From: a virus
Taxonomy: Duplodnaviria; Caudoviricetes
IMG/VR virus record: IMGVR_UViG_3300025652_000516
Location: 1 to 24,706 of that record
Length of the DNA: 24,706 nt
Strand: one strand, 5' to 3'
In this document: positions 1,221 to 21,978 of the stretch, in pieces
Layout of the letters: each line of letters begins with the position of its first letter
How positions within the stretch are numbered: position 1 is the first letter of the stretch
Notes under the pieces: generated by a model
The model's database searches: none
What the model was told of the DNA's origin: nothing
What the model saw: the letters and a program-made list of their open reading frames with translations, nothing else
Made by a program: the position numbers and the translations under genes

Positions 1221-1250
1221 TTGTTTTGTAAAAATAATTTACTATATTTG
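1221..1250 (+). promoter_or_regulatory. Bacteroidota sigma-70-type promoter upstream of the ERF operon
   Basis: TTG at 1221-1223, 19-bp spacer, TATATTTG at 1243-1250; fits the -33 TTG / -7 TAnnTTTG consensus; intergenic. Confidence 0.75.
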
Positions 1251-1283
1251 TAAAATAAATTTAATTTAAACTAATCAAAAATC

Positions 1284-1850
1284 ATGGAGAAATCTGAAAC
1301 AATAGGTAAGCTAACCCTTGCCTTGTCTAAAGTACAGGCTCAATTAAAACCTGCTAAAGAAAATTCAAAGAATCCTTTCTTTAAGTCAAATTACGCAGAC
1401 TTAGGCTCAGTTTGGGATTCTGTTCGTAGCTTATTAGCTGATAACGAATTAGCAATACTTCAAATGCCTACAGATATTGGTGGGCTAACAACAATCTTAT
1501 CACATTCAAGTGGAGAGTTTATCTCATCTACCATGTACATTCCATCTAAGGAAGATGCACATGGTGTAGGTTCAGCTATCTCTTACGCAAGAAGGTATGC
1601 TTTAGCATCTGTCATAGGTGTAGTTACTGGAGATGATGATGGTAATGGTGCAGTAAAAAGCAGTACACCAACCGTTAAGAAGGCTACATCTAAGTCTAAG
1701 CTATCTGATAGCCAATACAAAGCGATGGTAAAAGCTATAGAAGATGGTAAGGGTGCAGTTGTTGAGCAAAAAATGAGTGGGTATACACTTACAAAGACTC
1801 AGTCAGATAAGTTATCTAAGTTATTAAAACTAGCTAACACCTTAGCTTAA
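1284..1850 (+). CDS. erf: ERF-family single-strand annealing protein
   Basis: K.SKNPFFKSNYADL at the N-terminus and GSAISYARRYAL...G...DDDG, the ERF signature. Confidence 0.92.
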   Translation: MEKSETIGKLTLALSKVQAQLKPAKENSKNPFFKSNYADLGSVWDSVRSLLADNELAILQMPTDIGGLTTILSHSSGEFISSTMYIPSKEDAHGVGSAISYARRYALASVIGVVTGDDDGNGAVKSSTPTVKKATSKSKLSDSQYKAMVKAIEDGKGAVVEQKMSGYTLTKTQSDKLSKLLKLANTLA

Positions 1851-3145: not shown

Positions 3146-3231
3146 AGGCATGAGTGAGAGCAGTTAAACTCTAATAATCATAGCTACTGCAGGTAAGACT
3201 TCCGAATAAAACCTATGAGCCTTTCTTTTTT
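3146..3231 (+). ncRNA. Candidate structured cis-regulatory RNA leader
   Basis: Nested short stems (AGGC/GCCT, ATGA/TCAT, AGAG/CTCT, AGGT/ACCT), a GCAGT/ACTGC cross-pairing, and a following U-rich run. Confidence 0.3.
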
Positions 3232-3244
3232 AAAACCAAAAATC

Positions 3245-3745
3245 ATGTTAGTAAGAATATCAGATTACGATCTTGTCGACATATCTAAAGTCGAGCATCT
3301 AAATATAGATGAGAGAACTATTAATTTCTACATTAATGGTAAGAACTATGACTGCATATACAATAATGAGTATGAAGCGTTGTATGTATTCAATAATATT
3401 ATTAGAGAAAAATCAGCTAAAGACTTTAGGTTCTACACAGACAATCAGAAAAAAGAATCAGAAGAAGATTTAAGAAAAGAAAAAGCATTTGAAATATTTT
3501 GGAATCTGTACGATAAGAAACACGATTACAATAAAACTAAAATGACCTTTATTAAATTATCCTTAGAGGAAATAAAAAAAGCTGTTACTTCAGTAAAGAA
3601 ATATGTTGAGTCTACACCCAATAAGGCATACAGAAAAACTCCTAGAAGCTGGTTGCTAAATAAGGCGTGGGATAATGAAATAATTATAGATAAGAAGAAA
3701 GAGAATAGATATGTAAAGCCTAATTATGTTACAGATGAAAGATAA
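3245..3745 (+). CDS. Phage replication protein (initiator/helicase-loader-like)
   Basis: C-terminal FEIFWNLYDKK...YV.STP...YRK.P..WL..K.W.NE pattern typical of phage replication proteins; directly upstream of DnaB. I prefer the ATG at 3245 over 3215 because of its A-rich AACCAAAAATC leader. Confidence 0.7.
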   Translation: MLVRISDYDLVDISKVEHLNIDERTINFYINGKNYDCIYNNEYEALYVFNNIIREKSAKDFRFYTDNQKKESEEDLRKEKAFEIFWNLYDKKHDYNKTKMTFIKLSLEEIKKAVTSVKKYVESTPNKAYRKTPRSWLLNKAWDNEIIIDKKKENRYVKPNYVTDER

Positions 3746-5057
3746 TATAGAAATGGAGAATAGGTTGTTAGGTAAATTAATTAGCAACTCAAGAGATTAT
3801 TACGACCATCATTCTTTGTTGTCTGAGAGCATATTTAAAGACCCTTTAAACAAAAGGATATACAAAGTATTATCATCTAATTTAGATGTAGGAGATAAGG
3901 TGGATTTGATTACTATCTCTTCAAAAATAAAGGACTCGTTAGTTGATGTTAGGGTGGCTGAATGTATTTCAAGCGACCATTACGGATACATCACAAACAA
4001 TATAATAGTATACCTTAGCCAAGAAGATAAGAAAATTAGGCTAAAGAATCTAACTGAAACTATGACTAAGCGAATAGATAGGGGAGATGATTTGTTTGAT
4101 ATGTTAGACTTCATGGAATCTGAGGTTAAATTAATATCAGAGGTTAGGGGTAGTGATATACCTGACATTAAAAAACAACTTAAGGTATTGCATGATGACA
4201 TACAAAAGAGAATGTCCTCAGATGATATGGTAGGCATACCTACAGGATTTCAATCAATAGATAAATTTACTGGTGGCTGGCAGGAGACTGACTTTATAGT
4301 TATAGGTGGTGCATCCTCTATGGGTAAGACATCACTAGGTTTAGCGTTCTGTTACAATTGTACTAAGGCTGGTATACCATCAGCAGTATTCTCATACGAA
4401 ATGGGAGATACTCAGTTACTACAGAGGTTAGTATCCTTGGAGAGTTCAGTTAATAATAGATACATCATGAAGGGTGCATTGCAAGACGATGAACTTAAAA
4501 GAGTTAATACTGCCATAGGTAAGCTAGAAAGAACTAATTTATACGTTGATGAGTGTAAGGACTCCTCACTTAGATACCTACTAAATAAGATACGTCAGTA
4601 CGTAATAACTAAGGATGTCAAGTTTGTATTGGTTGATTACCTGCAGTTAGTTAAGGGTAGTGGACATTCTAGAGAGCAAGAGGTAGCGTTGGTGGCTCGT
4701 GAACTTAAGAATATAGCTAAGGAATTAAACATAACAATCGTAGCGTTGTCTCAGCTTAGTAGAGGTGTGGATAGAAGAGAGGGTTCAAGACCTACGCTAT
4801 CTGACCTTCGAGAGAGTGGGGAGATAGAGCAAGCGTCAGATATTGTTATGCTTGTATATAGACCTGAATACTATGGTATCATGCAGGATGATAGTGGTAA
4901 ACCTACTGAAGGCTTAGTAGACTTAATCTTTGCTAAGGGTAGGAATATAGGTACTGGTACTTTACCTCTTAAATTTAAGAAGGAATACACAAGGTTTAGT
5001 GATCCTATGGATTATAAAGAGAGTTACACTAGCTACAAACCTGAGGAATCATTTTAA
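3726..5057 (+). CDS. dnaB: Replicative DNA helicase, DnaB family
   Basis: GIPTGF..ID, Walker A GGASSMGKT, FSYEM, VDYLQL, LSQLSR, RP.LSDLRESGEIEQASD and AKGRN motifs. The start may be 3735. Confidence 0.96.
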   Translation: MLQMKDNIEMENRLLGKLISNSRDYYDHHSLLSESIFKDPLNKRIYKVLSSNLDVGDKVDLITISSKIKDSLVDVRVAECISSDHYGYITNNIIVYLSQEDKKIRLKNLTETMTKRIDRGDDLFDMLDFMESEVKLISEVRGSDIPDIKKQLKVLHDDIQKRMSSDDMVGIPTGFQSIDKFTGGWQETDFIVIGGASSMGKTSLGLAFCYNCTKAGIPSAVFSYEMGDTQLLQRLVSLESSVNNRYIMKGALQDDELKRVNTAIGKLERTNLYVDECKDSSLRYLLNKIRQYVITKDVKFVLVDYLQLVKGSGHSREQEVALVARELKNIAKELNITIVALSQLSRGVDRREGSRPTLSDLRESGEIEQASDIVMLVYRPEYYGIMQDDSGKPTEGLVDLIFAKGRNIGTGTLPLKFKKEYTRFSDPMDYKESYTSYKPEESF

Positions 5058-6560: not shown

Positions 6561-6987
6561 GTTTGAAAAAGAATCTGATAGAGTAAGAGAAGAGGAAACT
6601 CTTCGTATACTATTAGAAGGCAAAGACCTAACTTTTAAACAGCTAGATAGGTATGCTCCAGTAGATGCAGAGATAATTAACAATAAGACCATGAAAGTTG
6701 TATCTCTATGTGAGATAAAAACAATGAGTCTTGATATGAGTGATATAGAAAGGGTTAGGACTTCTGTACGAAAGATACAACACTGTCAGAAAGAATCCTT
6801 AACTAGAGATTTACCTTTATGTATAGCCTGGAGATTTAACGATGGTATAGGTTATATATGGATGAAGGATATAACTAAAGCCACAGTTGAGTGGGGTGGC
6901 ATGAAGAACCCACGACCAGGATCTATATGGGATAGGGAACTCCTGTTTTATATAGACTTAGATTTACTAACTATAATTAAATTTTAG
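6544..6987 (+). CDS. PD-(D/E)XK-family nuclease
   Basis: RE...Y.PVDA...CEIKT catalytic pattern; W...DG and DRE motifs. Confidence 0.7.
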   Translation: MKREPKFEKESDRVREEETLRILLEGKDLTFKQLDRYAPVDAEIINNKTMKVVSLCEIKTMSLDMSDIERVRTSVRKIQHCQKESLTRDLPLCIAWRFNDGIGYIWMKDITKATVEWGGMKNPRPGSIWDRELLFYIDLDLLTIIKF

Positions 6988-6989
6988 AC

Positions 6990-7181
6990 ATGAACAAGAT
7001 TCAGAAAGATCAAGAACAGCAGTACAAGTATTTAAAGTTTGACTGCGAAATGAGAGCTAAGGCTGTAGAACTAGCCTCAAGTCTACCAACATCTAAGAAC
7101 GTTAAGTCTTTGTTAGATAATACAGAAAAGATAGCTAAGTATATATTTGGTATGGTAGACCAACCAAAGGAACAGAAATAA
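6990..7181 (+). CDS. Hypothetical protein
   Basis: 63-aa helical ORF (R.KAVELA...EKIAKYI). Confidence 0.65.
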   Translation: MNKIQKDQEQQYKYLKFDCEMRAKAVELASSLPTSKNVKSLLDNTEKIAKYIFGMVDQPKEQK

Positions 7182-8786: not shown

Positions 8787-9023
8787 ATGAAGCAAAGAAA
8801 AGATGGTACAAGTCCCTACTACACTAACAAATCTGTTAAGTCAAAAGTAGATAAGTTATTAAATGACAACTCTATTATATGGTCTAACATGGGGACAGGG
8901 ACTCCGTTAGATCTTAAGACTAGAAAAGCAGGTGAAAGTAAGTGGCAAGAATTAGCCCTTGAAATAAAAAAATTAGACGAAACTTACTTTAATGTTATAT
9001 GCCCATACGGTATAGATTCTTAA
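8787..9023 (+). CDS. Hypothetical protein (last gene of the + strand module)
   Basis: 78-aa ORF; its stop overlaps the stop of the convergent small gene. Confidence 0.7.
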   Translation: MKQRKDGTSPYYTNKSVKSKVDKLLNDNSIIWSNMGTGTPLDLKTRKAGESKWQELALEIKKLDETYFNVICPYGIDS

Positions 9024-9151
9024 TCCCATATAATATATATGCATATAGGTCCAGCAAATAGCTGGACTTCGTTGTATGGTACCTCTTCAGTTGCCTCGAA
9101 GTTCCTCATACCCAATAACAATCCCTTAATTAGTGCTACTCCTATTTCCAT
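9020..9151 (-). CDS. 43-aa small hydrophobic protein
   Basis: MEIGVALIKGLLLGMRNFEATEEVPYNEVQLFAGPICIYIIWD*. ATG at 9151; the longer 9250 start would run through a promoter and a terminator. Confidence 0.6.
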   Translation of the reverse strand: MEIGVALIKGLLLGMRNFEATEEVPYNEVQLFAGPICIYIIWD

Positions 9152-9160
9152 ACGATGTAA

Positions 9161-9188
9161 TAAAAAAAGGAGGGAATCACCCCTCCTT
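9161..9188 (-). terminator. Rho-independent terminator
   Basis: Minus strand reads AAGGAGGG-gtgatt-CCCTCC followed by TTTTTTT. Confidence 0.85.
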
Positions 9189-9235
9189 CTAACCAAAAAC
9201 CATCTAAGACTCTGAACAGAGTCTGAAGAAAAGCT
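9161..9235 (-). ncRNA. Candidate trans-acting small RNA (~75 nt)
   Basis: Dedicated TATATTTG promoter (9247-9240), perfect hairpin AGACTCTG-tt-CAGAGTCT (9207-9224), unpaired seed (9189-9206) and terminator. The 5' end is estimated from the -7 box. Confidence 0.6.
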
Positions 9236-9239
9236 AAAG

Positions 9240-9258
9240 CAAATATACAATATTATTT
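9240..9258 (-). promoter_or_regulatory. Bacteroidota -7 promoter element
   Basis: Minus strand AAATAATattgTATATTTG, intergenic, 25 nt downstream of the giant gene's stop codon. Confidence 0.7.
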
Positions 9259-9282
9259 CTACGTATATTGAACTTGATTAAA

Positions 9283-12200
9283 TTAATTTGCAAGCTCATA
9301 ATCTGCAGTATTAAGAATCTCATATGCTAACCACTTTGGCATTTTAACATTTGATCCTGTCATTATATTAATTATATCTACTCCACGACCTCCAGCTTTA
9401 CGAACACCCTTAGTTATCTTAACCATGTCTCTAAACTCACGTTCAAAATCTGAATCAAATAAATTATTGTCAGGATCTCTATATCTTTTCTTTGTATCTG
9501 ATTCACTTGATAAACTAAACTTGACACGATTTTTGAATGGAGTTGAAATTTTATCAATTAAACCTTCTTCACCTTGACTTAACTCCTTCATCTTTCTGTA
9601 AGTAGATGTGTAGTCAAACTTAGACGAAGTGTAAGGCATCAGTTTAGTAATACGCAAACCAAGCATAGCTAACATTTCTGTATCTACAGATCTATTTGTG
9701 TCAGTAGTCGCTGCAATTTCTGCTAACTTAGCTGCCTGATTTATGGTAGACGGTCCTATAACCTGTGCTACATACATAACTCCTTTAAACATTTTTGTTA
9801 ATGGATCATCAGACTCATTGTAAATTCTATTATTTCTATTTTCTATAACCTCTTTTATAGCAGATGTAGTCATATCAATAGATAGAAAGGGCTCGTATAT
9901 TTGTTTTACTACTCTAGTAAAAGACTCTAATCCTTCTTCGCTTTCAAAGCCTTTCATCATAACTCTAAAAGTATCTCTTATGAATCCTGTACCAGACATC
10001 TTAGACATATTAATATACTCTATATAAGGTACTTCTTGTCTATAGAAAGGACTTTTTGGATCCATATCTATCATTGTACCTCTACTTAATACAGTATTCT
10101 TACTATTTCTATCCCATTCTGCTATTATTCTTTCTATATGTTGATCCATCTCGAAGTCCGATCGTTCTTTCAATGACATGTCAAATTCTTCTTCTTCTTC
10201 GTCATCTCTAAATGCAGACATTATAGCTTGAGACAATCCATACCCACCCATTATCAAGGCTGTCTGAACCGACTCAGTTATAACTAATCCAGCTAAAGCA
10301 CTAGCCATTCTTTTAGAACCTAATGATTTTAACTTAGGATTGTTACTATTCATCTCTTCATTTGCTAACCTTAAAGCATTAAGAGAACATCTCCATGTTT
10401 CAGCTTGGAATGACACAAAAGTACCAACTAAAGGAAATCTACCAATACTTCTAATAAAAGCAGGAACCTCATCGTAGTTAGGATACGTACCTCTAACATT
10501 AATAGCTGCCTGTCTTCTAGCTAAGTCTTCTGGGAACCCAGCTTCCTTATACCTATTTATTTCAGTTGCAAAAGCTAAGAACTTAAAGACATCATCTTCG
10601 ACTTGATAAGCCTTAGTTAAAAACTTATCTGTTCCTTTGACTCCACCCTTAATTAAATCTTTTGCTTTTTCAATACCAGTAGCATCTTCATTCTTTCTTA
10701 TATACTCATTTATATCATATCCTGCACCATCTAATTGATTAGCTATAGAGTTTATCTCTTGCAAAAATGCATTTGTATTTACAACACCAAGTGTTATAGC
10801 TGCTTCATAAAGTTCTTGAAGTTGTGGATTGCTATTGTCATATGCAATAAACTTTATCATGTTTATAGCATCCTTAAACATAACTCCATTTGTTGCAACG
10901 TGTCCATTCATTAGGACAAAAGAAGTGTTACCAATAACGTTTCTAAAGTGAGTACCCAAACTCCATATAGTCTTAAACTTTTTACCAAGTAAAGATACTT
11001 GAAGGTATTTTCTCATTAAGTCGCTGTTAGCTGCAGACAATACAGACTCATCAAACTCATTAAGAACATTATACATTTCATTGTCAACAAAATAACCTTC
11101 TAACGCTCCCCACTTACTTCCTTTAAGTTTATTACCTGAGAATTTAGACGATTCACCCTGTGGTAAATTTGCATCTTCATCCATTGGTGGCATTATGAAA
11201 TCACCTAAACCAATATCTAGCAACTCTTCGTACATTCTTTCAGATGCTATATTGTTAGAAATCTTAGATACCGTAGTAAGATAATTGTTAAATGGATCGA
11301 CAACCTCTCCAAGTAAATCTCTAATCTCTTTTGGTAAGTTTGTATTTCTAGCTTTAAATATAGAAACATCAGATGTTAATGCGTTAGCAAAACCACCTCC
11401 AAAGTAATCAAGCGATCCAGATTCTTTTCTAAGTATTGTATCTATTTTTTTCTTAGCAACATCGTAAAGTTCTTCTACTGGTTTACCTTCATACTTCTTT
11501 TTTCCTTGAAGCTCACTAACCATAAATAATATAGCCTTCTCTCTAACCTCCTCAGTTGGTGAGTAAGATTTAGAACCATATAACTTATATTTTCTGTGTA
11601 GATAAATACCTTTATTAGCATCTATAGTTAATGCAAGTGGACCAGAAACTAAACCTTCGTCTAATAGTATAGTACTTAATGAGGTGACATGATTAACCAT
11701 TTCATTAATTACATTTAATAGCTTAGGGTTACCTTCAACCTTTCTAGCACTTTTGTTTGTTAGTAATAATTGTATCTTATCATGACCAACAACATCAGCT
11801 ATTAGCTGTTTTTGTTTTGCCTTGTCAGCATTCTTGTATGCATCAGTTTCTTTTATTTCAGATGTAATTTCTTTTATAACCTGCTGTAGTTTTTTAGCAT
11901 TACTATTAGCTATAAACAATTCTCTGTTTGCAGAACCTTTAGCATAAATCATAAGGTTCTTTATATCCATATTTGTATGCTGACCAGCAGGCTTAAACAA
12001 TATCTTACTAGCCCTAATATCATATCTTCTAGTGCTATCATATAGTTTAGAACCCTTATCTATCTCAGATTTTGTAAGACCTTTTTTGTCTGAGTCAAGT
12101 TTAATTCTACTTCCAAAGTATCTTAATCCTGATAAGAATTTACCAAGTTTGTAGTCTTGATTTATTAAAGAAGTTTTTAAGTCAAACAAGAATCCCATTG

Positions 12201-15200
12201 AGTCGCTTACATACATAGTCTTCTCTTTATTATTCACAAGAGAAAATCTAGTTGTAGGGTTAGACTGAACTGGTTCCCAAATCTCTACCATACCCTCACC
12301 ATCTTGATCATATATGAATCCTTGGAACCCAGCACTCTCTGCTACCTTAGCAGTTTCTTCCTGCTCGTTATATTGAATATCCTCAGCAGAAACTTCTTCG
12401 GTTTCTATTTCATCACAGTTATCGTCTAGAATCTCTTGAACTTGTTCTGGGTTAATTCCATAGTTTAACTGAACAGAAAGTCCATCATCATTCTGTATCA
12501 CTGACATTATATTTACGTCATCACCTAAATCACTATCATCTATTGCAGACTTTATTTTGTCTATAGATATATTTAAGTATTGTGGGTTATCAGTATTGAA
12601 GTTTAATGTTGATACAAATCTATTACCTTGCTCTTTAAACTTAGAGATGTTATGTTCAACCATAGATTTTATATCTAAAGGATCTAAGTCTAATGGGTAT
12701 AATCTATCCATAGGGAACATTCCCTTATTCTTCTCACCTTCAGTTATTATTCTATCGTCATCATTCTCATTTAAGTTAAAATGTAATCTAGGTCTAGCCC
12801 ATGTTTTCATTTTTGTTTCGGCATATCCAGAAACAGGCTCCACAGTAGGGTTTATTATGCCGACTCCTGACTGATTGTAACCAAATATGTTTAATACACC
12901 ATCTTTAACATCAAAGTAGTCGTAAAAGTCTGATAACTCAAAGTAGCTATTATTTAAAGCTTTTGCTTGATTAGGACTCATTACAACTTTGTCGTTTTTA
13001 GATAAGCTAAACTTAGAAACCCCACCTGATTTATTAATATTATCAGCAAAAGGTCTAACTGGTATTGACTTTAAAGGTTTGCCTTCTTCTTTAGCAGTTT
13101 CAATAAGTTCAAAGTTATCTTTAATAAATTGAGACTTTTTTACACTATCTCTATCAGCTCTATTATTAATTTTATTTATACCAAAGTAATCCTGTACTCC
13201 TACTCTTCTTTTTGTATAGGAATCAAAAAAATCTGAGTTATTATCAACAAAAAGATTAATGTTAATATTATTTTTTGTCCAGTCATTAAGATAAGAAAGA
13301 ATAATAGTATCAGATGATGTAATCGACTGAGCCTTTAGATAAAAACTCCACATACTACTGTTAGCACTTCCCCATTCTGATTCTTTAAAAGATTGTTTAA
13401 AAGTTGAATTAAGTCTATTGTAAAATTCTTCTTCCTCTTTTAGTCTTTTAATATATTTTTCTCTTGCAAAATCAGCTACAGCTAAAATTTTATAACCTAA
13501 ATTATCACCTTGATATGCACTTTCTACTATAAATAAACTATCATTTAAACTAGAAAGCTCGCTACTAGATACCTCACCTTCTTCAACTAAAAGTTCTTGT
13601 TCTTTTTGAATTAATCTCTCATAGCTTCGTATTTTATCTCTAAGTTCTGAATCTATAAAATCTATATCCTCTTGTTTTTCTATATTTACTAAGCTGAGAT
13701 CTTCTAACATGTCATTAAAATACGAACTAATCATGTCTAGATCTATATAATTAATACCAGCATGAATAGGTTCAAAAGAACCAACATCATCTTTTTCTGA
13801 ATATAAATTAGTTAAATTAATATCTACAAGACCCTGCTTCATATTTACATTCTGAATACTATCGTCAGATTGTATAGCTCTTATTTCATCTGCAGTAAGT
13901 TTACTACCTTTCTTTAATTTAAAAGATTTTCTTGGTGCTTTAGGATTAACTTTTAAATTTGAAGCTAACACCATCCCATCGTTAGTCAACTCAGTAAGAT
14001 TATCTTTATTTGATTTTGTACTTTGATTAGAAACTTTATCAATTTGAGACATACCTATGGAAGGTAAAGTCTCTTCATATATAATAGCAGAATTAGAGTC
14101 CTGAGACCATCCCTGAATACTCCTTACAATCTCGCCAGATGGGAACGTTATGTAGTCATAACCTTCTTTAGCTGCAATATTCAAAAGAGTTCTCATTATT
14201 AAACCGTTAGACTTTGCAACTGTACCCCAAGGCATATAGGTTATATTACCCATAGTTCCTCGATTTAATTGCATTTTCATATCTCTAATATCATTTTCTA
14301 TATCACGATTTTTTTGTCTAAGAGCTGTCCGAATTTTTAAATTTGATTTGTATTCTTTGACTGTTTGGTTCGATGAACTTAAAACATCTCCTATTAATTC
14401 TATCTCTCTCTTAATATTTTTTTGTTCATCTATTTTAGCATCTATTTTGGCTGACAACCTAGCTTCACCTCTTTCGGAAAGTCTATTAGTTGCATTAACG
14501 TCAGATCTTTTAGGTGCTTTAGTTTTAGGTCCTATAAAGTCATTTAAGTTTTTAATACCATTTCGACTTTTCCATTCATCAATCTTGTATTCAAATTGTC
14601 TCCTTTCTTCTTTATTTATTCTTTGTTGCCAATCTGACTGAACCTCTCTAATAAACATTATTTTATTCCCATCAGAATCAGTACGATCATCAATTCTAGC
14701 CCAACCAAGGACAGGTTTATATTTTGGAAAGTGACCTTGTGATGCGTACAAGTTACTTGTGTTTATAGGATTAGGATGAGTAAGAACAATCTCTCTGTAG
14801 TTAGGTCCTTGATCTATGTCACTTCTACTCATGTTATAGTCCTCATATTCAGCTTGAGGAAAGTACAACTCAACTACATCCTTTAATTTTATAATAAGTT
14901 TCTTACTAGGAGATTGTCTGTAAAAATCAGACTTCATTATTTCAAAACCTAGATTATTAAATATGGCTCTATCAATTAAAATATCATCAAAACCAACGCT
15001 AGTTAATAGTTCTTGTATTCCTTCTTGAGTAGACTCATCATTGATTCCTCTTCGTATTTGAACAAACTCTGCAATTACTTCAGCTAAATCTCCATACCTA
15101 AGAGACTCAACCTGTAAGGATGAAATTTTACTAGCATTAAAAGAATCAATAGTATGTTGATATATAGCATCAAATAAATCTACTTCAAAAGGAAAACTTC

Positions 15201-18200
15201 TACCATCATTAAATGAAGAAAAATATACAAGTGAAGGTGATGTAAGTGACCTGTTTACACTTAACTCTTCAACAATATTATTATAATCTTCTTTAGACAA
15301 CAAACTCTTTAGTCTTGAAAAAAGTCTATTTTCACCAAACTCATCTTTTTTAATTTCTTTAAAATAAAAACTATCAAAATCGTATACAGAAGACTTGTCG
15401 TTTAATATATTTATATCATTAATCTCAAAAGCATCAAGTACTCTTCTTTCTTTTTGTTTGTAAGATACACCTTCATCCCCATAAAGATAATTAACATTAA
15501 CTTCAGGTCTTTCTAGCATTGTCAAAAGATATTTAATGTCTTGAAATGTAAGACCATTATTATCTCTTGTACCTTCCTTAATTCTTTCTTTTAAATGCTC
15601 TTCTAGTTCTTCTAATAAGTTTATTCCAGATACATTATCTCCTATTCCAGGAACATTACTCTTTAATATAATGTCTATCCACTTCTTAGGAGTCTTTACA
15701 TTGTTAGACTTTTTAGGTATCTCATACATATCTGATTTACCCTCCATAAAGTCTTTTTGATAGTTCTGACCTAATCCTTTAAGAACCAAATGTAATGATT
15801 CATCTAAAGGTGATTTGAAGTTTATAGATGGAGTTAATTTTAATGAGAATTTTACTCTGCCTTGATCGTCAATTTCATCTTGATTATAATTGTTTTTATA
15901 TACACTTCTAACCTGAGCTTCAGGATCAAATACAGCTATATTTTTGTATGTAGACTCATTAAAACTTTCTTCAACAAAGTAAGAATCAAATCCAAGTTCT
16001 TTTATGTAGTGAGTGTAATTTTCAATATTACCGTAGTTATCTGAATCCTGTATTTTATCTACAAAGTCATTCAAAACATCTTGAGTTTCTTGACTATCAA
16101 TATCAAAACCTTCATCAATTAAGTACTCAGCATGTGCTTTAGCGATTAATGAAATATGTTCAGTGTCTTCATAGTCCCATGTTTTTTCTGTCTTTAAATA
16201 AACAGGTATTACGTTATGTCCAGAAGTCATTTCATTTATCTCAGCATGATTCCCATATGAGTTACCTGCAAATAAATTAGCAAAATCTGAATTAGCTGTA
16301 AAGAATACACCTTTTGCTTTATCAGTTCTATCTTCAAAAGTTTCAAATTCAAATTTGGTTCCATGATAAAATACTCTAGGGTCTCCATCTGAGTCAACAG
16401 CATTAGACTTACCAAACCAATCCTTAAAACCTTTAGTTCCTTTAGGTTCTATACCGTTGAACTTAGCTCTATTAGATAAGGAGAATCTACCGTATTGAAG
16501 TTTACCTCCAGAGAAGTCATCTTTTACTTCAGGTACTGCATAACCTCCATACATAAATGTAGCGTATGCTGAAGACTCAGACTTTTCAGAAAGTAAAACA
16601 GGTCTTCTTCCTTCTTTCTTAGCTCTAGCTATCTCACTCATTGAGGCATAGTTAGGAAATACGTTTGTTATATTAGTAAACGTATCAAATATTCTAAAAT
16701 TAGCTCCCTTTATTGCAAATGGGTATCCAACATGATGACCTACATCACCAGGTTTAGTCTCAACAATTTCAGAGTCTAAATCAATCTCAATAGCTCCAAC
16801 TAGATCTCCTTTTTTAGCGTCAGAAATCATAGACTCATTTACAAACTCTAGTAGTTCTTTCTTTCTTCTAGTTACTTTTGTGTCTGAGTTAGGTAGCCCT
16901 AATTCTTTTAATAAACCTTCATTGATTAGTTTATCCATTATAATGTTTCTAGAACCAGTTCCTATAGTTCTTAGGTAGCTAGAAAAATCACTTAAACTTT
17001 TAAATTTCTTTTCAGGTAAACTTACTCCAGTATCTTGAAATGATTTTACAACACTATTTAATTCTACAATCTGATTAAGCCTAGCTGTAAGTTTTCTTTT
17101 ACCTATCTTCTTTTTATCAAGACCATTTTGTAATTCTTTTTCCATATACTCTATGAAATTTAAATTACCAAGTATACCTTGAGGTGCTTGAACCATAAAT
17201 ACCATAGTATTGGTACCGTTCTTTCTCAGTTTATTTAATTCAGTCTGAGCCTTTTCTCTAGTAGTAAATGCCCACCCTTCAGTGCCTTCTAACATTGGGT
17301 ATAAAATACCACCCATCATCATATGAGTTATACCAGTACTACTTGTTATTTGTCCTGCTGCTGACATATCAATAGCAGATACCATAACCTTTTGCCCATT
17401 AAGATCTATAATAGATCCTACAGGTACATCACTCTCTTTAAAGCCTTTTCTCTGTCTTAATGAGAACTTAGTAGAAAATCTACTTGGACTGACAGTCTCA
17501 TCTAAATCTACCTCACTGGTAAGAATTTCGTCACCATTTTCTGCAAGACCTCTCATTGACTTATTCATACTAATGGATAACTTAGTCTCTTCGTTTGTAA
17601 ATCCAAAGTCAATATCTTTATCCCCTATAGTAATACTCTCTCCTGATACAATATTTCTAGAAAAACTTTTTCTTATCTGAGTGTCAGACATATCACCTAT
17701 GGTTAATAGATCTAATGTTTTTCCTTCTCTACCTAATTTAGTCATAAGGCTTTTAACTCTGTCTTCACCAAACAACATGCTTAAAAACTCTTTAAGAATT
17801 TTTCTTATCTGACCTAATGTAGATAAATCATTAGAGAATTTAGCTGCTGCTGCATCACCTAACATTTCTGCAAAGGCTTCTTCTATAGCAGCTTCTTCAG
17901 CTTGTTTCTTTGTGAGACCTTGTGACTCAAACACTTCTTGATAAGTATCTTTAGCCCACTCTAAATATGACTTCGTTGAATATCTTCCTGTAGTCTGATC
18001 TTGATACCTTTTCTTTATGTTAGACTTTCTTACAGTGTCTTCAATTTTTTTATAAACTTTTTTTCCTTTTTTATTTTTCTTAAGAGATGCTACCAATGGG
18101 TGTACTATATCATGAAACATATCACTTAAAGTAAGATTAGCTGCATTTATATATACCTTACCGTCTGGAGCATAAAAAGCAGCAGATTTATCAGCAACCA

Positions 18201-21200
18201 TTTTTGCTGTAACACCTTTACCTAAGTTAATGTTGTTCTCAGTTAAATGATTATATAGATTTTGTTGAGTTCTAGCTATAACAAAAGGTATATTCCCATT
18301 CACAGAATTAAGTATAGATACTAGTGTACCCATAATTTTTTGCATAGTAGGAGAAAAATCTTTTATGTCTTTTGCAAGATCAGCAATATTACTTTTATTA
18401 TATTCCTGTACGTGAGACTTATTACCATCAGGTCTTATACCTATGTATTTAATTTCACCTTTAGAGTTTTTTATAGCAATAACTCCACCCTCCTTTAGTG
18501 ACTTAACACCTCTTACACGCTTTGCATTTTGAGTAGTACCATCAGAGAATAATATACCATTTTTACTAGAGTATGTATATTTTTGACTAAAGTCTCTAGT
18601 TAGTTTAAGTGCCTGATCTTTTGATATACCAGTTACAATAAACGAAGACTTTCTAACTCCGTCTTGAACAGATACAACTTTTTTAAAGTTTGCACCTATA
18701 GACTGAAGTCTAGATATTAAGTTCTTAACTTGTTTAGCCTCAGTATCAGCATCCGTCTTTTTATTACCTACACCAAGAACATAGTATCCACCATCTGCAT
18801 TAAGCTCTTCGTTTGTTACTTGATCTACCTCTGACTCGTCAAGATTATTTAATACCTTATTGTTATTTATTATATTTATATCTCCTTGTTTAGCCTTTGG
18901 ATTAGAGTTATTTTCAGCATTAAATTTTTCTAATAAAGATAGAGCTTGTTCGTATGATAATTGTGCAACGTTAACAACGCCTGGTTCAATGACTTGATTA
19001 CCTTTTAAAATAGAAGGTACACTTTGACCAATAGGCAAGTAAAGATATTTATTACCTGTATAATCATCTGTTCCCCAAAATCTGTTTATCTCTTCTTTAG
19101 TTGGAGGAACTAATGAGTTCATTGGGTTTCCTTGAGATCTAGTTGCATCAAATGCTCGCATCATATTTTTAAGAAGAGAACGAACATCAGGAGTTACATT
19201 TATAGCGTCTAAATCAAAACTTCTAAAGACTTTAACTTTAGGTTGAGTGTTCTTAAATTTATTAGGAGACTGTATTATTATTTCTCCATTCTCATACCTA
19301 AAACCTAGTCCATCAAACCCTTCTGTAAACTTAAAATCTTTAACTCTAATACCTTTTGATTTTAGAGCTTTTTTCATTTGATTCATTCTCTTTTTAGAAT
19401 TATCAAATTTAGACAAGAAAGGATTTGATCCAACATGATTATTTAAATCATTCATTGAGGCTTGAACCTCTTTCAGCGTATCCAGAAAATCTGTAGAATC
19501 TAATTCTACATCCTTACTTGTTATAGAGTTTAACTTGTTTATTGACTCATCAAACTTTCCTTGTAGCTTATTAAACTTGGTCTGAGCTTTCTGACCAGCC
19601 TTACTCATTAAACCATTATCAATGTTGTATAACTGTTCCTGCATTTCAGGATCCATAGAAGCATCTATAGTAATATCTTTACTTATAAGCTTCTTAATGT
19701 TATCATTGTTTGATAAGAAAGATAATACACCATTTCTATCAACCTCAACTACATTACCAGTAACACTATCTGTTATAGTATACTTAAAGCTTTCATTTAT
19801 CTTAGTAGAGTTAACACTATTATATGCAGTCTGAAGAGCAACCTTAGTAACACCTGCTCCACCCATCATTGCAAACATACCAACACCAGCCATATAAGAA
19901 TCAGATATTCTATTTACAACCTCACTAACAGATTCAGGTGACTTAACGCCTGTAAGTATATCTACACTAATATTAGCTGCCTCAGTAAAACCTTCAGACA
20001 TACCCTCTGCGTTAGCATTCCTAGCTATCTGTTTAAATACAGATTCTGCTATTTCTTTTCTTGCTTCTTTTTCACCTTTATTTTTTACAAATGACTTAGG
20101 CAGAGCCTTAAACATATCATTCATATTATCTAAGATGTCTAATGTTTTTTTCTCAAAATAAACCTCAACAAAACCATTAGCCATTGCATTAAATAACATA
20201 GCAGTGTCGCTAAGACCTCCTTCTACATTTCTAGCACTAAACTCTTCTAATTCATTTTTAGTCTGACCGTAGGCAGCAGCTCCCATAACACCAGCAGATG
20301 TCCATTTAGCAATAGATTTTCTTCTACTAGTACCTGCTATAGATTGGTATCTTTTAGCAACTTTATCTGCTAAACCTTTACTCTTTTTAATAACACTTTT
20401 TGGAATAAATTTACCTACAGGTATTTTATTAATTAAAAAGTTAGTAAATGCCATTTGAATTATTTGTGGAGCAGAACCGAATACTTGACCCACCAACTGA
20501 ATACCTGCATCAGAAATTTCTCCATTTCTAATAGAGTTCATTACACCAGGATACTGATAAACATAAGCTCTTTTTTGTGAATCTTTAGCAGTTTGAAATA
20601 ACGCATTTGATAAAGGTCCACCTTTAGACATATACTCATCGTAGTTACCTGTTGCTAACATAACAGGAAATTCTGCAGCATCCATCTCTCCACCAAAATG
20701 ATTTAAACCTCCTTCAGTAAATTTATCATACCATTCTCCCCAAACTCCATCCCAATTTTTTTGAGTCTCTTTTAAACCTTGCAAGTCTTTACCTGCATCT
20801 TCTTCTAAAAAGAAATCTGATATTATTATATCGTTGTCACCAGTTTTAAGACCTTCATTAAATGATAAACCATCAGCATTCTCAGGATTTTTTATAAGGT
20901 AATTCATAGCCTCAGCATAAGTAGATTCAACCTCTTCTTCTCCTATTTTTATTTTTATGTTTTCATTTCTAACATAACCCCAATTTAATCCTAAATCTTT
21001 AGATAAATTGTCATACATATCCATACCACCATTTTTTTCAATAGTAGTCTGTCTAATGTTTCTCTCTAAGTCTGTATGGTAATCTGTAAGAGCTTGAACT
21101 GATTGTTCATCAGTTTTTTTTAATTGGTCGTCTATAGATGCTATTTCACTTCCTAATTGTCTAGATCTTTTGTTTAATTCTACATCTTCATTATAATTAT

Positions 21201-21978
21201 CTTTATATTCTTCATCAGTAAGAATTTTATAATAAGTAGATAAAGGATAAGATTCAGAAACATCTGGGTAAATATCATCATCAGATCTACCAAATCCCAA
21301 AAGACCTGAAAGTGCATTTGAAAGTTCGTCATCGTTACTTCCAGATATATATCTTTCTTTTTGATTTAATACATCTTTTATTTCTTCACCACGAACAAAA
21401 GATCCGTCATCAGTTTCTTCGTACTGATAATACTTACCACTTTCTAAGCGTATATTTCTTTTTTCTAAATCTTTTTCAAATTGAAGTCCCCTAACTTCAT
21501 CTCTTTGTTTTTCAAGAGAAGACTTATTCTCTAAATTATTCTGTCTTACAGTATAGTCTACACCCTTCTTATCATAGTACTGAGATTTAATAAATTCTTT
21601 TTGATCCTCAGATAAATTAGATAAATCTAAAGGCTCTTGAGGTTGAGGAGTTGCCTCACCACTTTCTCGCTGTGATACAGCTTGATTAAGATACTCTTGA
21701 TCCGAAGAAGAAGGTTCTTCCGAAGATTGTAATGTAGTGTCCTGAGAAGTCCCCTGTATGGCATTGTCCCATATCGAAGGTTCTTTTTTTTTTACTTCAC
21801 CCCAAGCTGCCTGAAAAGTTTCTAAATCTGTAGTTGCAAACAATCCTTTCTCTTTACCTAAATTGTAAAGACTTTCTTGAATCTGTATATTTGATTGTTT
21901 AAATTTATCAATACTTGTTTTAGACGTAAGTAATCCATTGTCTAAATATAGTTGATACAAACTATCTAACTTATCCAT
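9283..21978 (-). CDS. Giant (4231 aa) polyvalent virion/ejection protein
   Basis: Uninterrupted ORF. C-terminal region with THFRN, EDD.FK and AA..VR.T.PNY..VP...P.VG.F.SF.AE motifs that I associate with large podovirus internal virion/DNA-transfer proteins. Internal ART-like, zincin-like and other polyvalent-protein domains. Confidence 0.85.
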   Translation of the reverse strand: MDKLDSLYQLYLDNGLLTSKTSIDKFKQSNIQIQESLYNLGKEKGLFATTDLETFQAAWGEVKKKEPSIWDNAIQGTSQDTTLQSSEEPSSSDQEYLNQAVSQRESGEATPQPQEPLDLSNLSEDQKEFIKSQYYDKKGVDYTVRQNNLENKSSLEKQRDEVRGLQFEKDLEKRNIRLESGKYYQYEETDDGSFVRGEEIKDVLNQKERYISGSNDDELSNALSGLLGFGRSDDDIYPDVSESYPLSTYYKILTDEEYKDNYNEDVELNKRSRQLGSEIASIDDQLKKTDEQSVQALTDYHTDLERNIRQTTIEKNGGMDMYDNLSKDLGLNWGYVRNENIKIKIGEEEVESTYAEAMNYLIKNPENADGLSFNEGLKTGDNDIIISDFFLEEDAGKDLQGLKETQKNWDGVWGEWYDKFTEGGLNHFGGEMDAAEFPVMLATGNYDEYMSKGGPLSNALFQTAKDSQKRAYVYQYPGVMNSIRNGEISDAGIQLVGQVFGSAPQIIQMAFTNFLINKIPVGKFIPKSVIKKSKGLADKVAKRYQSIAGTSRRKSIAKWTSAGVMGAAAYGQTKNELEEFSARNVEGGLSDTAMLFNAMANGFVEVYFEKKTLDILDNMNDMFKALPKSFVKNKGEKEARKEIAESVFKQIARNANAEGMSEGFTEAANISVDILTGVKSPESVSEVVNRISDSYMAGVGMFAMMGGAGVTKVALQTAYNSVNSTKINESFKYTITDSVTGNVVEVDRNGVLSFLSNNDNIKKLISKDITIDASMDPEMQEQLYNIDNGLMSKAGQKAQTKFNKLQGKFDESINKLNSITSKDVELDSTDFLDTLKEVQASMNDLNNHVGSNPFLSKFDNSKKRMNQMKKALKSKGIRVKDFKFTEGFDGLGFRYENGEIIIQSPNKFKNTQPKVKVFRSFDLDAINVTPDVRSLLKNMMRAFDATRSQGNPMNSLVPPTKEEINRFWGTDDYTGNKYLYLPIGQSVPSILKGNQVIEPGVVNVAQLSYEQALSLLEKFNAENNSNPKAKQGDINIINNNKVLNNLDESEVDQVTNEELNADGGYYVLGVGNKKTDADTEAKQVKNLISRLQSIGANFKKVVSVQDGVRKSSFIVTGISKDQALKLTRDFSQKYTYSSKNGILFSDGTTQNAKRVRGVKSLKEGGVIAIKNSKGEIKYIGIRPDGNKSHVQEYNKSNIADLAKDIKDFSPTMQKIMGTLVSILNSVNGNIPFVIARTQQNLYNHLTENNINLGKGVTAKMVADKSAAFYAPDGKVYINAANLTLSDMFHDIVHPLVASLKKNKKGKKVYKKIEDTVRKSNIKKRYQDQTTGRYSTKSYLEWAKDTYQEVFESQGLTKKQAEEAAIEEAFAEMLGDAAAAKFSNDLSTLGQIRKILKEFLSMLFGEDRVKSLMTKLGREGKTLDLLTIGDMSDTQIRKSFSRNIVSGESITIGDKDIDFGFTNEETKLSISMNKSMRGLAENGDEILTSEVDLDETVSPSRFSTKFSLRQRKGFKESDVPVGSIIDLNGQKVMVSAIDMSAAGQITSSTGITHMMMGGILYPMLEGTEGWAFTTREKAQTELNKLRKNGTNTMVFMVQAPQGILGNLNFIEYMEKELQNGLDKKKIGKRKLTARLNQIVELNSVVKSFQDTGVSLPEKKFKSLSDFSSYLRTIGTGSRNIIMDKLINEGLLKELGLPNSDTKVTRRKKELLEFVNESMISDAKKGDLVGAIEIDLDSEIVETKPGDVGHHVGYPFAIKGANFRIFDTFTNITNVFPNYASMSEIARAKKEGRRPVLLSEKSESSAYATFMYGGYAVPEVKDDFSGGKLQYGRFSLSNRAKFNGIEPKGTKGFKDWFGKSNAVDSDGDPRVFYHGTKFEFETFEDRTDKAKGVFFTANSDFANLFAGNSYGNHAEINEMTSGHNVIPVYLKTEKTWDYEDTEHISLIAKAHAEYLIDEGFDIDSQETQDVLNDFVDKIQDSDNYGNIENYTHYIKELGFDSYFVEESFNESTYKNIAVFDPEAQVRSVYKNNYNQDEIDDQGRVKFSLKLTPSINFKSPLDESLHLVLKGLGQNYQKDFMEGKSDMYEIPKKSNNVKTPKKWIDIILKSNVPGIGDNVSGINLLEELEEHLKERIKEGTRDNNGLTFQDIKYLLTMLERPEVNVNYLYGDEGVSYKQKERRVLDAFEINDINILNDKSSVYDFDSFYFKEIKKDEFGENRLFSRLKSLLSKEDYNNIVEELSVNRSLTSPSLVYFSSFNDGRSFPFEVDLFDAIYQHTIDSFNASKISSLQVESLRYGDLAEVIAEFVQIRRGINDESTQEGIQELLTSVGFDDILIDRAIFNNLGFEIMKSDFYRQSPSKKLIIKLKDVVELYFPQAEYEDYNMSRSDIDQGPNYREIVLTHPNPINTSNLYASQGHFPKYKPVLGWARIDDRTDSDGNKIMFIREVQSDWQQRINKEERRQFEYKIDEWKSRNGIKNLNDFIGPKTKAPKRSDVNATNRLSERGEARLSAKIDAKIDEQKNIKREIELIGDVLSSSNQTVKEYKSNLKIRTALRQKNRDIENDIRDMKMQLNRGTMGNITYMPWGTVAKSNGLIMRTLLNIAAKEGYDYITFPSGEIVRSIQGWSQDSNSAIIYEETLPSIGMSQIDKVSNQSTKSNKDNLTELTNDGMVLASNLKVNPKAPRKSFKLKKGSKLTADEIRAIQSDDSIQNVNMKQGLVDINLTNLYSEKDDVGSFEPIHAGINYIDLDMISSYFNDMLEDLSLVNIEKQEDIDFIDSELRDKIRSYERLIQKEQELLVEEGEVSSSELSSLNDSLFIVESAYQGDNLGYKILAVADFAREKYIKRLKEEEEFYNRLNSTFKQSFKESEWGSANSSMWSFYLKAQSITSSDTIILSYLNDWTKNNININLFVDNNSDFFDSYTKRRVGVQDYFGINKINNRADRDSVKKSQFIKDNFELIETAKEEGKPLKSIPVRPFADNINKSGGVSKFSLSKNDKVVMSPNQAKALNNSYFELSDFYDYFDVKDGVLNIFGYNQSGVGIINPTVEPVSGYAETKMKTWARPRLHFNLNENDDDRIITEGEKNKGMFPMDRLYPLDLDPLDIKSMVEHNISKFKEQGNRFVSTLNFNTDNPQYLNISIDKIKSAIDDSDLGDDVNIMSVIQNDDGLSVQLNYGINPEQVQEILDDNCDEIETEEVSAEDIQYNEQEETAKVAESAGFQGFIYDQDGEGMVEIWEPVQSNPTTRFSLVNNKEKTMYVSDSMGFLFDLKTSLINQDYKLGKFLSGLRYFGSRIKLDSDKKGLTKSEIDKGSKLYDSTRRYDIRASKILFKPAGQHTNMDIKNLMIYAKGSANRELFIANSNAKKLQQVIKEITSEIKETDAYKNADKAKQKQLIADVVGHDKIQLLLTNKSARKVEGNPKLLNVINEMVNHVTSLSTILLDEGLVSGPLALTIDANKGIYLHRKYKLYGSKSYSPTEEVREKAILFMVSELQGKKKYEGKPVEELYDVAKKKIDTILRKESGSLDYFGGGFANALTSDVSIFKARNTNLPKEIRDLLGEVVDPFNNYLTTVSKISNNIASERMYEELLDIGLGDFIMPPMDEDANLPQGESSKFSGNKLKGSKWGALEGYFVDNEMYNVLNEFDESVLSAANSDLMRKYLQVSLLGKKFKTIWSLGTHFRNVIGNTSFVLMNGHVATNGVMFKDAINMIKFIAYDNSNPQLQELYEAAITLGVVNTNAFLQEINSIANQLDGAGYDINEYIRKNEDATGIEKAKDLIKGGVKGTDKFLTKAYQVEDDVFKFLAFATEINRYKEAGFPEDLARRQAAINVRGTYPNYDEVPAFIRSIGRFPLVGTFVSFQAETWRCSLNALRLANEEMNSNNPKLKSLGSKRMASALAGLVITESVQTALIMGGYGLSQAIMSAFRDDEEEEEFDMSLKERSDFEMDQHIERIIAEWDRNSKNTVLSRGTMIDMDPKSPFYRQEVPYIEYINMSKMSGTGFIRDTFRVMMKGFESEEGLESFTRVVKQIYEPFLSIDMTTSAIKEVIENRNNRIYNESDDPLTKMFKGVMYVAQVIGPSTINQAAKLAEIAATTDTNRSVDTEMLAMLGLRITKLMPYTSSKFDYTSTYRKMKELSQGEEGLIDKISTPFKNRVKFSLSSESDTKKRYRDPDNNLFDSDFEREFRDMVKITKGVRKAGGRGVDIINIMTGSNVKMPKWLAYEILNTADYELAN
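15853..16476 (-). other. ADP-ribosyltransferase-like domain (ART-PolyVal type) within the giant protein
   Basis: FKDWFG.S..VD.DG.P..FYHGT (YHGT at 16357-16368), GVFFT, V.PVYL, GFD, IAVFDP..QVRS. Confidence 0.8.
17800..18330 (-). other. Zincin-like metallopeptidase domain (MPTase-PolyVal-like) with HDxxH
   Basis: AAFY...G.VYIN......FHDIVH (HDIVH at 18100-18114) and downstream EEAFAE (17866-17883). Boundaries approximate. Confidence 0.6.

Follow-up and report, generated by a model that had tools for sequence, protein, structure and literature searches.

The tailed phage genome fragment analysed here (24,706 nt; sole contig of IMG/VR record IMGVR_UViG_3300025652_000516; hereafter the window) holds a short minus-strand segment, positions 9161 to 9258, just past the end of a giant, probable virion gene. 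This segment raises a simple question: does it only end transcription of the virion genes, or is it a gene in its own right? The original prediction was that it encodes a small RNA (sRNA) that acts in trans on the translation starts of two plus-strand genes, erf and the replication initiator gene rep. Here, we suggest that the locus is a real, conserved and co-evolving sRNA candidate and, judging from comparative sequence evidence, that its probable product is a trans-acting sRNA repressing translation of mRNAs for replication and early functions of the phage itself.

The phage and its candidate sRNA locus

The plus strand of the window carries genes for Erf, an exonuclease, an HTH-like regulator, a replication initiator, a DnaB-like helicase, a resolvase and PhoH. 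The erf gene, for an Erf-like ssDNA annealing protein (1284..1850, +; phrog_2324, E 8e-39), heads the erf-exonuclease block, while the replication block consists of rep (3245..3745, +; phrog_270, E 1e-6) and, downstream of it, the gene for the DnaB-like helicase (3726-5057, +; phrog_19, E 8e-79). We place the start of rep at 3245 and not at 3215 because the alignments of relatives begin at the methionine at 3245, with an ATG there. On the minus strand, there are three large ORFs, the last of which (9283..21978, −) ends at 9283, just upstream of the sRNA promoter, and encodes a 4231-aa product without a PHROG match; judging from Elemovirus and phage MW202828, in which the structural module ends with an equivalent gene, this product is probably an injected virion protein.

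Near-complete relatives of this phage are 59-64 kb in size, three of them with direct terminal repeats, and they encode portal, terminase, holin and endolysin. Among the 24 window proteins and the 55 proteins of one complete relative (G002), no integrase or anti-repressor families were found, only two weak matches to regulators were seen, and no lysogeny module was found; the phage group is apparently lytic. Because the G002 terminase has matches in 132 catalogued phages (identities below 60%), the majority from Flavobacterium and Cellulophaga, we infer a host among the Bacteroidota. A search of bacterial genomes for the host or a prophage gave no matches with the exonuclease and none with the RNA pattern.

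On the minus strand, a −7 promoter box of the Bacteroidota sigma-A type, TATATTTG (9240..9247, −), precedes a predicted sRNA of ~74 nt (9162..9235, −) with a likely 5' end at 9235 or 9234. Folding predicts a 5' stem-loop (9199..9234, −) composed of a basal 3-bp stem, internal loops and a perfect 7-bp hairpin at 9207-9224. This stem-loop is followed by the anti-leader seed (9189..9203, −) and by an intrinsic terminator with 11 pairs (9161..9190, −), which is common to the virion-gene operon and is the sole terminator-like site within 8900-9500 (0.2 expected). The box at 9247-9240, the hairpin and the terminator, originally placed at 9161-9188, were all re-derived from the window. The seed had been described as unpaired throughout; this holds for its core (9198-9191, UUUUGGUU), which is freely unpaired, but not for its AUGG part, which is paired in the basal stem that lengthens the 5' hairpin to 9234-9199.

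Both strands fold well, the 77-nt minus strand with a z-score of −3.26 and the plus strand with one of −5.80, and, therefore, folding alone cannot assign the strand. Bare TAnnTTTG is present in the window at chance frequency (36 found versus 33.9 expected), and the promoter call, therefore, rests on conservation and not on the octamer match.

Conservation of the predicted transcription unit

Loci were gathered via PhoH, Erf, resolvase and terminator patterns. A search of related phages for the promoter-hairpin-seed-terminator unit, as suggested with the original prediction, shows that the unit recurs: 54 of the 57 syntenic loci with enough sequence have a match to the element profile, and the three misses comprise a divergent copy (L045 and L154, one record) and one locus without any (L062). 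With identical RNAs collapsed, and with three loci that end too early to hold the promoter left out of the counts, the homologues amount to 36 distinct RNAs, 55-105 nt in length. TGGTT lies ahead of the terminator in 35 of them, and TTTTGGTT is present in 28. The core of the seed has an unpaired probability above 0.7 in 19/21 lineages. Each phage genome searched has one strong profile match, and 61 of the 63 pattern matches in metagenome contigs are on contigs with a syntenic marker gene. The exact 20-nt seed-terminator pattern has no match in viral records because the flanks differ, and matches in cultured phages are of terminator length only.

These homologues also bear on the reading that there is no functional sRNA and that the locus is the virion-operon terminator combined with a decayed plus-strand gene start or a protein-bound DNA repeat. 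Every homologue is preceded by a TAnnTTT(G/A) box or by a one-letter variant of it (2 entries). The boxes come in 14 variants in which the middle two letters vary, and 35/36 distinct RNAs have a purine start 5 nt past the box, the same box-to-start spacing as in mapped Flavobacterium promoters (PMC6847099, PMC9723704). Such a minus-strand box, kept at fixed spacing despite its variable middle letters, would not be expected of a mere terminator, even if a terminator is needed at this position anyway and, in Elemovirus, a similar one without an RNA body ends the giant gene at the same junction. Similarly, the plus strand of the seed can be read as a leader after a hairpin, but there is no conserved plus-strand ORF, and 4/21 units, including that in the window, lack an ATG. 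The 5' domain differs in sequence and length; still, its stem topology is predicted in most homologues, and it is more stable on the minus strand in 15/21 lineages, with compensatory changes in the apical hairpin of the long forms. The signal per sequence is weak (z < −1 in 7 of the 21 counted), and RNAalifold on a sequence alignment did not recover a consensus 5' stem for the 13 short forms. In the terminator, 3/8 pairs have compensatory changes. Finally, the sRNA body is in no listed piece of shallow RNA-run contigs: six RNA runs contain only 0.07-0.15 of the words and, among the pieces listed for contigs from four of these runs, none covers 9169-9235. Because contigs of this kind cannot show ends or strand, they are silent either way on the sRNA transcript. 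Altogether, we consider it improbable that the locus lacks a functional sRNA. A discrete unit running from promoter to terminator is upheld, its signals being conserved across the phage group, while the transcript itself is predicted.

In MW202828, there is no TAnnTTT(G/A) box at the same junction, where a tRNA-like sequence is seen by eye. When 14 more distant sequences were scanned for promoter-terminator units in general, one of two positive controls was recovered, and the blanks are, therefore, weak; a match obtained in Elemovirus was rejected as it adjoins one of the matched leaders of that phage and looks like a repeated late promoter. Two further units were seen elsewhere. In a more distant phage, L025:4495-4560 (+) combines a promoter, a U-rich TTTTTGGTTTT stretch and a terminator just before the exonuclease gene and matches 3 of 19 candidate leaders in its locus over 9-10 nt, possibly representing an independent anti-leader RNA. 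At L301:370-407 (+), on a contig without a marker of the phage group and with ORFs that look cellular by eye, the same terminator follows an anti-AUG and TGGTT stretch; this could be a bacterial counterpart or chance. In many relatives, the resolvase gene (7508 in the window, and homologues) begins only a few bases past a −7-like box, suggesting that its mRNA has little or no leader.

Pairing with start codons and covariation of seed and leader

The seed can pair with the erf leader from −13 to the AU of the AUG (1271..1285, +; 15 pairs, 13 Watson-Crick and 2 G:U) and with the rep leader from −11 to the AU of the AUG (3234..3246, +; 13 pairs, 12 Watson-Crick and 1 G:U). These duplexes had been proposed at the outset, and every coordinate and count was reproduced, as was their common register, with each site directly preceding the G of ATG. 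No other site in the window, on either strand, can form 13 or more contiguous pairs with the seed, and two sites away from start codons have 12. When shuffled seeds were compared with the 24 start regions, 0/2000 reached 15 pairs and 0/2000 reached 13 on two starts. With up to three mismatches, the window has seven seed matches, the locus itself included, versus 1.36 expected. In cofolding, the erf duplex has −15.4 kcal/mol versus −5.1 +/- 1.8 for shuffled leaders and the rep duplex −12.0 versus −3.5 +/- 1.7, with 0/100 shuffled leaders as good in either case. Initiation in Flavobacterium and other Bacteroidota is promoted by adenines at −3, −6, −12 and −13 (PMC6847099), and these positions are covered wholly by the erf duplex and partly by the rep duplex. 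One argument did not survive: the G:U pairs had been taken to favor RNA-RNA pairing, but wobble-type differences are not enriched across the family (27/475 wobble-type versus 6/85 A:C-type transitions), and we reject the asymmetry as proof.

If the RNA acts on these leaders, seed and leader should change together. In 15 lineages, with one representative per seed type and the erf and rep ATGs fixed beforehand as targets, own pairs were compared with foreign pairs. Own pairs are the better ones, and the difference is significant for rep (p 2e-5 with a 24-nt query, 6e-4 with a 30-nt query) and for erf (5e-4 and 0.013), while six control leaders gave no significant difference (p 0.057-0.76). With 21 lineages, in which the target for L046, L052 and L246 was moved to an inserted gene after inspection, p is 2e-5 for rep and 3e-4 to 4e-3 for erf; the erf tests leave out two lineages without erf, and these permutation p-values assume independent lineages, which the lineages are not fully. 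A stricter comparison of nine disjoint nearest pairs favors the own pair in 7/9 cases for rep, a modest support (sign test p 0.09; Wilcoxon test p 0.037 and 0.0098), and in 5/9 for erf, which is not significant. Among held-out types, with the window's own record (L310) left out, one of three is strongly own-specific, and in held-out L309 the own RNA beats all 21 foreign RNAs. When structure is taken into account, the duplex at the replication block beats shuffled leaders (at most 2 of 100 as good) in 19/21 lineages and the erf duplex in 9/19. Thus, of the proposed repression of erf and rep in trans, the rep part is supported by covariation and the erf part more weakly, with repression as such being a likely consequence of the pairing.

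Individual lineages illustrate the matched changes. For instance, G008 has ACCATT instead of ACCAAA in the seed complement as well as in the leaders of erf, rep and two small early genes; in G007, the matched lineage-specific change is ACCAATAAA; and the RNA of G002 matches rep over 18 nt. In L045, non-homologous genes (from 3556) stand in place of the rep-dnaB module, identity is still 82-85% for erf, exonuclease and resolvase, and the L045 RNA matches the leader of the first gene in the replacement block over ~16 nt. In L046, L052 and L246, a small inserted gene (~30 codons, hydrophobic by eye) lies before rep, and the sRNA matches the start of this gene (14 nt in L246) and not that of rep. 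In other words, the match follows whichever start codon comes first in the replication block, despite gene replacement or insertion.

This behavior also bears on the possibility that the RNA is real but serves as a decoy or ligand of a host or phage RNA-binding protein, its likeness to the leaders being due to an inverted copy of terminator, leader and ATG followed by gene conversion. Gene conversion between the repeats could be an alternative source of seed/leader covariation, and the missing G:U bias fits such a source. Moreover, the element profile matches rep leaders and the hairpins upstream of them in antisense orientation (E 0.003-0.17), which points to an origin by duplication, and FopS RNAs of Bacteroides bind the protein RbpB (PMC11697453). 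However, a decoy would not explain why the match moves with the first start codon, why the matching stretch is kept single-stranded or why CAT, a possible anti-AUG, is present in 17/21 RNA bodies, and we regard the decoy as unlikely. The antisense matches, together with the bare Elemovirus terminator, suggest that the sRNA arose from an inverted leader copy set before an older terminator. A tree of Erf and exonuclease has good support for just 2 of its 16 inner branches, which leaves most of it unresolved, and we, therefore, do not claim an order of events.

In the window and nine relatives, leaders with at least eight contiguous Watson-Crick pairs to the RNA number 73/361 on the early strand versus 11/296 on the late strand, although early leaders appear richer in AC runs generally and the contrast is significant singly in 5/10 genomes, four of these from one lineage. 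In a structure-blind whole-genome scan, start regions account for five of the top ten non-self sites in G002 and one in the window, and they are scarce among the top ten for G001 and G004. Because several small early genes share the same lineage-specific leader, the target set, as read from the sequences, is probably wider than erf and rep.

Based on these data, we suggest the following model for translational repression by the sRNA. Host RNA polymerase would start ~5 nt past TATATTTG and stop at the terminator to yield an RNA of ~74 nt; late operon transcripts share the terminator and would also carry the sRNA sequence. The exposed UUUUGGUU core would nucleate on a AACCAAAA-type box just 5' of the start codon. 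Pairing would then open the weak basal stem and spread over the upstream adenines used by Bacteroidota ribosomes and onto the AUG. The computed duplex spans −13 (erf) or −11 (rep) to +2 and would block initiation. The primary target would be the start codon that opens the replication block (rep-dnaB), with erf and small early genes as secondary targets.

It is conceivable that the RNA pairs with these same sites and instead affects termination or stability of the transcripts, or even activates. Directly 5' of the rep site lie a hairpin and T-run; the complementarity of some lineages reaches into this hairpin. By contrast, no such hairpin accompanies the sites at erf and the small genes, and the duplexes have their ends at or close to the start codon, making this option very unlikely and a block of initiation the preferred reading.

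A separate RNA element lies just 5' of the rep target. This pseudoknotted element of ~77 nt (3146..3222, +), between an ssb-like ORF and rep, has 14 distinct copies (e.g. L106:2692-2782, L033:650-740 (−) and L042:437-528 (−)) and consists of a closing stem with T-run, a hairpin with a loop pairing to a strand further downstream, and another two stems. In its alignment, 99.7% of cells are paired and 6/22 pairs are changed on both sides, with 0/500 shuffles as high. There is no convincing Rfam match and no tRNA; its topology presumably recalls that of a pistol-type ribozyme. As the element is also present in the non-syntenic phages L033 and L042, it looks mobile. The L042 locus also holds a GOLLD RNA (6673-7062, −; RF02032, 222 bits). 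In L193, L182 and L046, the slot upstream of rep is occupied by other sequences of ~70-90 nt bounded by inverted repeats, in G004 and G008 by a plain terminator, and there is a tRNA-Ala at a comparable position in Elemovirus. Thus, this slot appears to exchange RNA elements.

Possible roles, known RNAs and significance

The location at the end of the virion operon had suggested that late transcription is coupled to replication shut-off. This is not supported: a promoter motif test (motif in 12/17 erf, 8/21 sRNA and 20/30 late promoters) did not separate the classes, early from late. At erf, the −7 box (1243..1250, +) is preceded and abutted by a GTAAA-N6-TTTAC palindrome (1228-1243, +), which is single in the window, partly kept in relatives and possibly an operator for the HTH-like ORF 2614-2817. 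The sRNA promoter is without the palindrome seen at most erf promoters. Temporal shut-off, control of copy number in a carrier state, and superinfection exclusion are all possible roles. Most likely, the RNA would serve to limit or end replication and early functions within the infected cell, and the same repression would also silence a superinfecting relative.

A precedent for start-codon blocking is provided by the FopS (RF04319)/GibS RNAs of Bacteroides thetaiotaomicron, and we propose that the phage RNA works alike. FopS RNAs repress by binding near the start codons of the first genes of operons (PMC11697453). Going by the sequence features of the phage RNA, both have a Bacteroidota sigma-A promoter and an intrinsic terminator. 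However, as described in PMC11697453, FopS is a chromosomal family of 14 copies, carries its seed in an unstructured 5' part and targets host PUL genes, whereas the phage RNA has a single-copy gene, a predicted 5' stem-loop with the seed between two hairpins, and targets among the phage's own replication and early genes. FopS is also relevant to the idea that the RNA acts mainly on host mRNAs (e.g. those of outer-membrane receptor operons), whose similar leaders would be imitated by those of the phage: outer-membrane protein mRNAs are enriched among FopS targets (PMC11697453), and there is a weak Rfam likeness to FopS. Nevertheless, lineage-specific covariation with the phage's own leaders is unexpected under selection by host leaders, and we find this decidedly improbable in comparison with repression of phage mRNAs. 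The FopS covariance model scores the phage RNA at 22 bits (E 0.2), short of the gathering threshold of 56. At threshold, there is no Rfam match in the window or in 20 homologue-carrying loci, in which matches are sub-threshold only, and c4 models are absent from matches up to E 5. The seed-terminator pattern has no match in a bacterial genome collection. Thus, by sequence, the phage RNA belongs to neither the FopS nor the c4 family.

The c4 RNA and its targets differ between P1 and P7, making the two phages heteroimmune. Like the RNA described here, c4 is a phage antisense RNA directed against the phage's own genes (PMC8198154). It lies in the operon that it controls (immI, with an anti-repressor), in temperate enterobacterial phages (PMC8198154). 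Unlike c4, the RNA studied here is encoded 6-8 kb from its targets, on the opposite strand, and matches several separate leaders. Short phage RNAs with their own promoters include sar of P22, OOP and aQ of lambda, STnc6030 of BTP1, PreS and VpdS; as reviewed in PMC12197685, they regulate development or superinfection exclusion by base pairing, most of them being antisense to one gene or Hfq-dependent on host mRNAs. In the accessible part of this review, a multi-target repressor of a phage replication initiator is not among the RNAs described, and the string "Bacteroid" does not occur in its text. Our own literature search, mostly of main texts available without subscription, found no description of such a phage RNA.

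In plasmids, CopA/CopT-type antisense RNAs limit synthesis of the replication initiator and are cis-encoded and fully complementary to their target. The phage RNA would likewise limit an initiator, and sequence divergence could similarly define incompatibility groups; it differs in being trans-encoded, pairing imperfectly and having multiple targets. How early and replication genes are shut off is poorly known in phages that have neither an RNA polymerase of their own nor a clear repressor, especially in those of Bacteroidota. In the system suggested here, regulator, targets and natural compensatory variants can all be read from sequence, providing ready cognate and non-cognate pairs. If true, start-codon-blocking sRNAs would extend from the Bacteroides chromosome to phages, and the system would offer a compact route by which the early regulon, and perhaps also exclusion groups, could be found in uncultured marine phages. 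More speculatively, we consider it possible, on tentative grounds, that apparently lytic marine phages rely on RNA only for replication control and immunity, with one trans-encoded RNA silencing the initiator plus early genes marked by a lineage-specific leader, and with seed/leader pairs forming incompatibility or exclusion groups that diversify by matched changes. Because Bacteroidota ribosomes read leaders without Shine-Dalgarno sites, such a strategy may have evolved repeatedly in phages of these bacteria.
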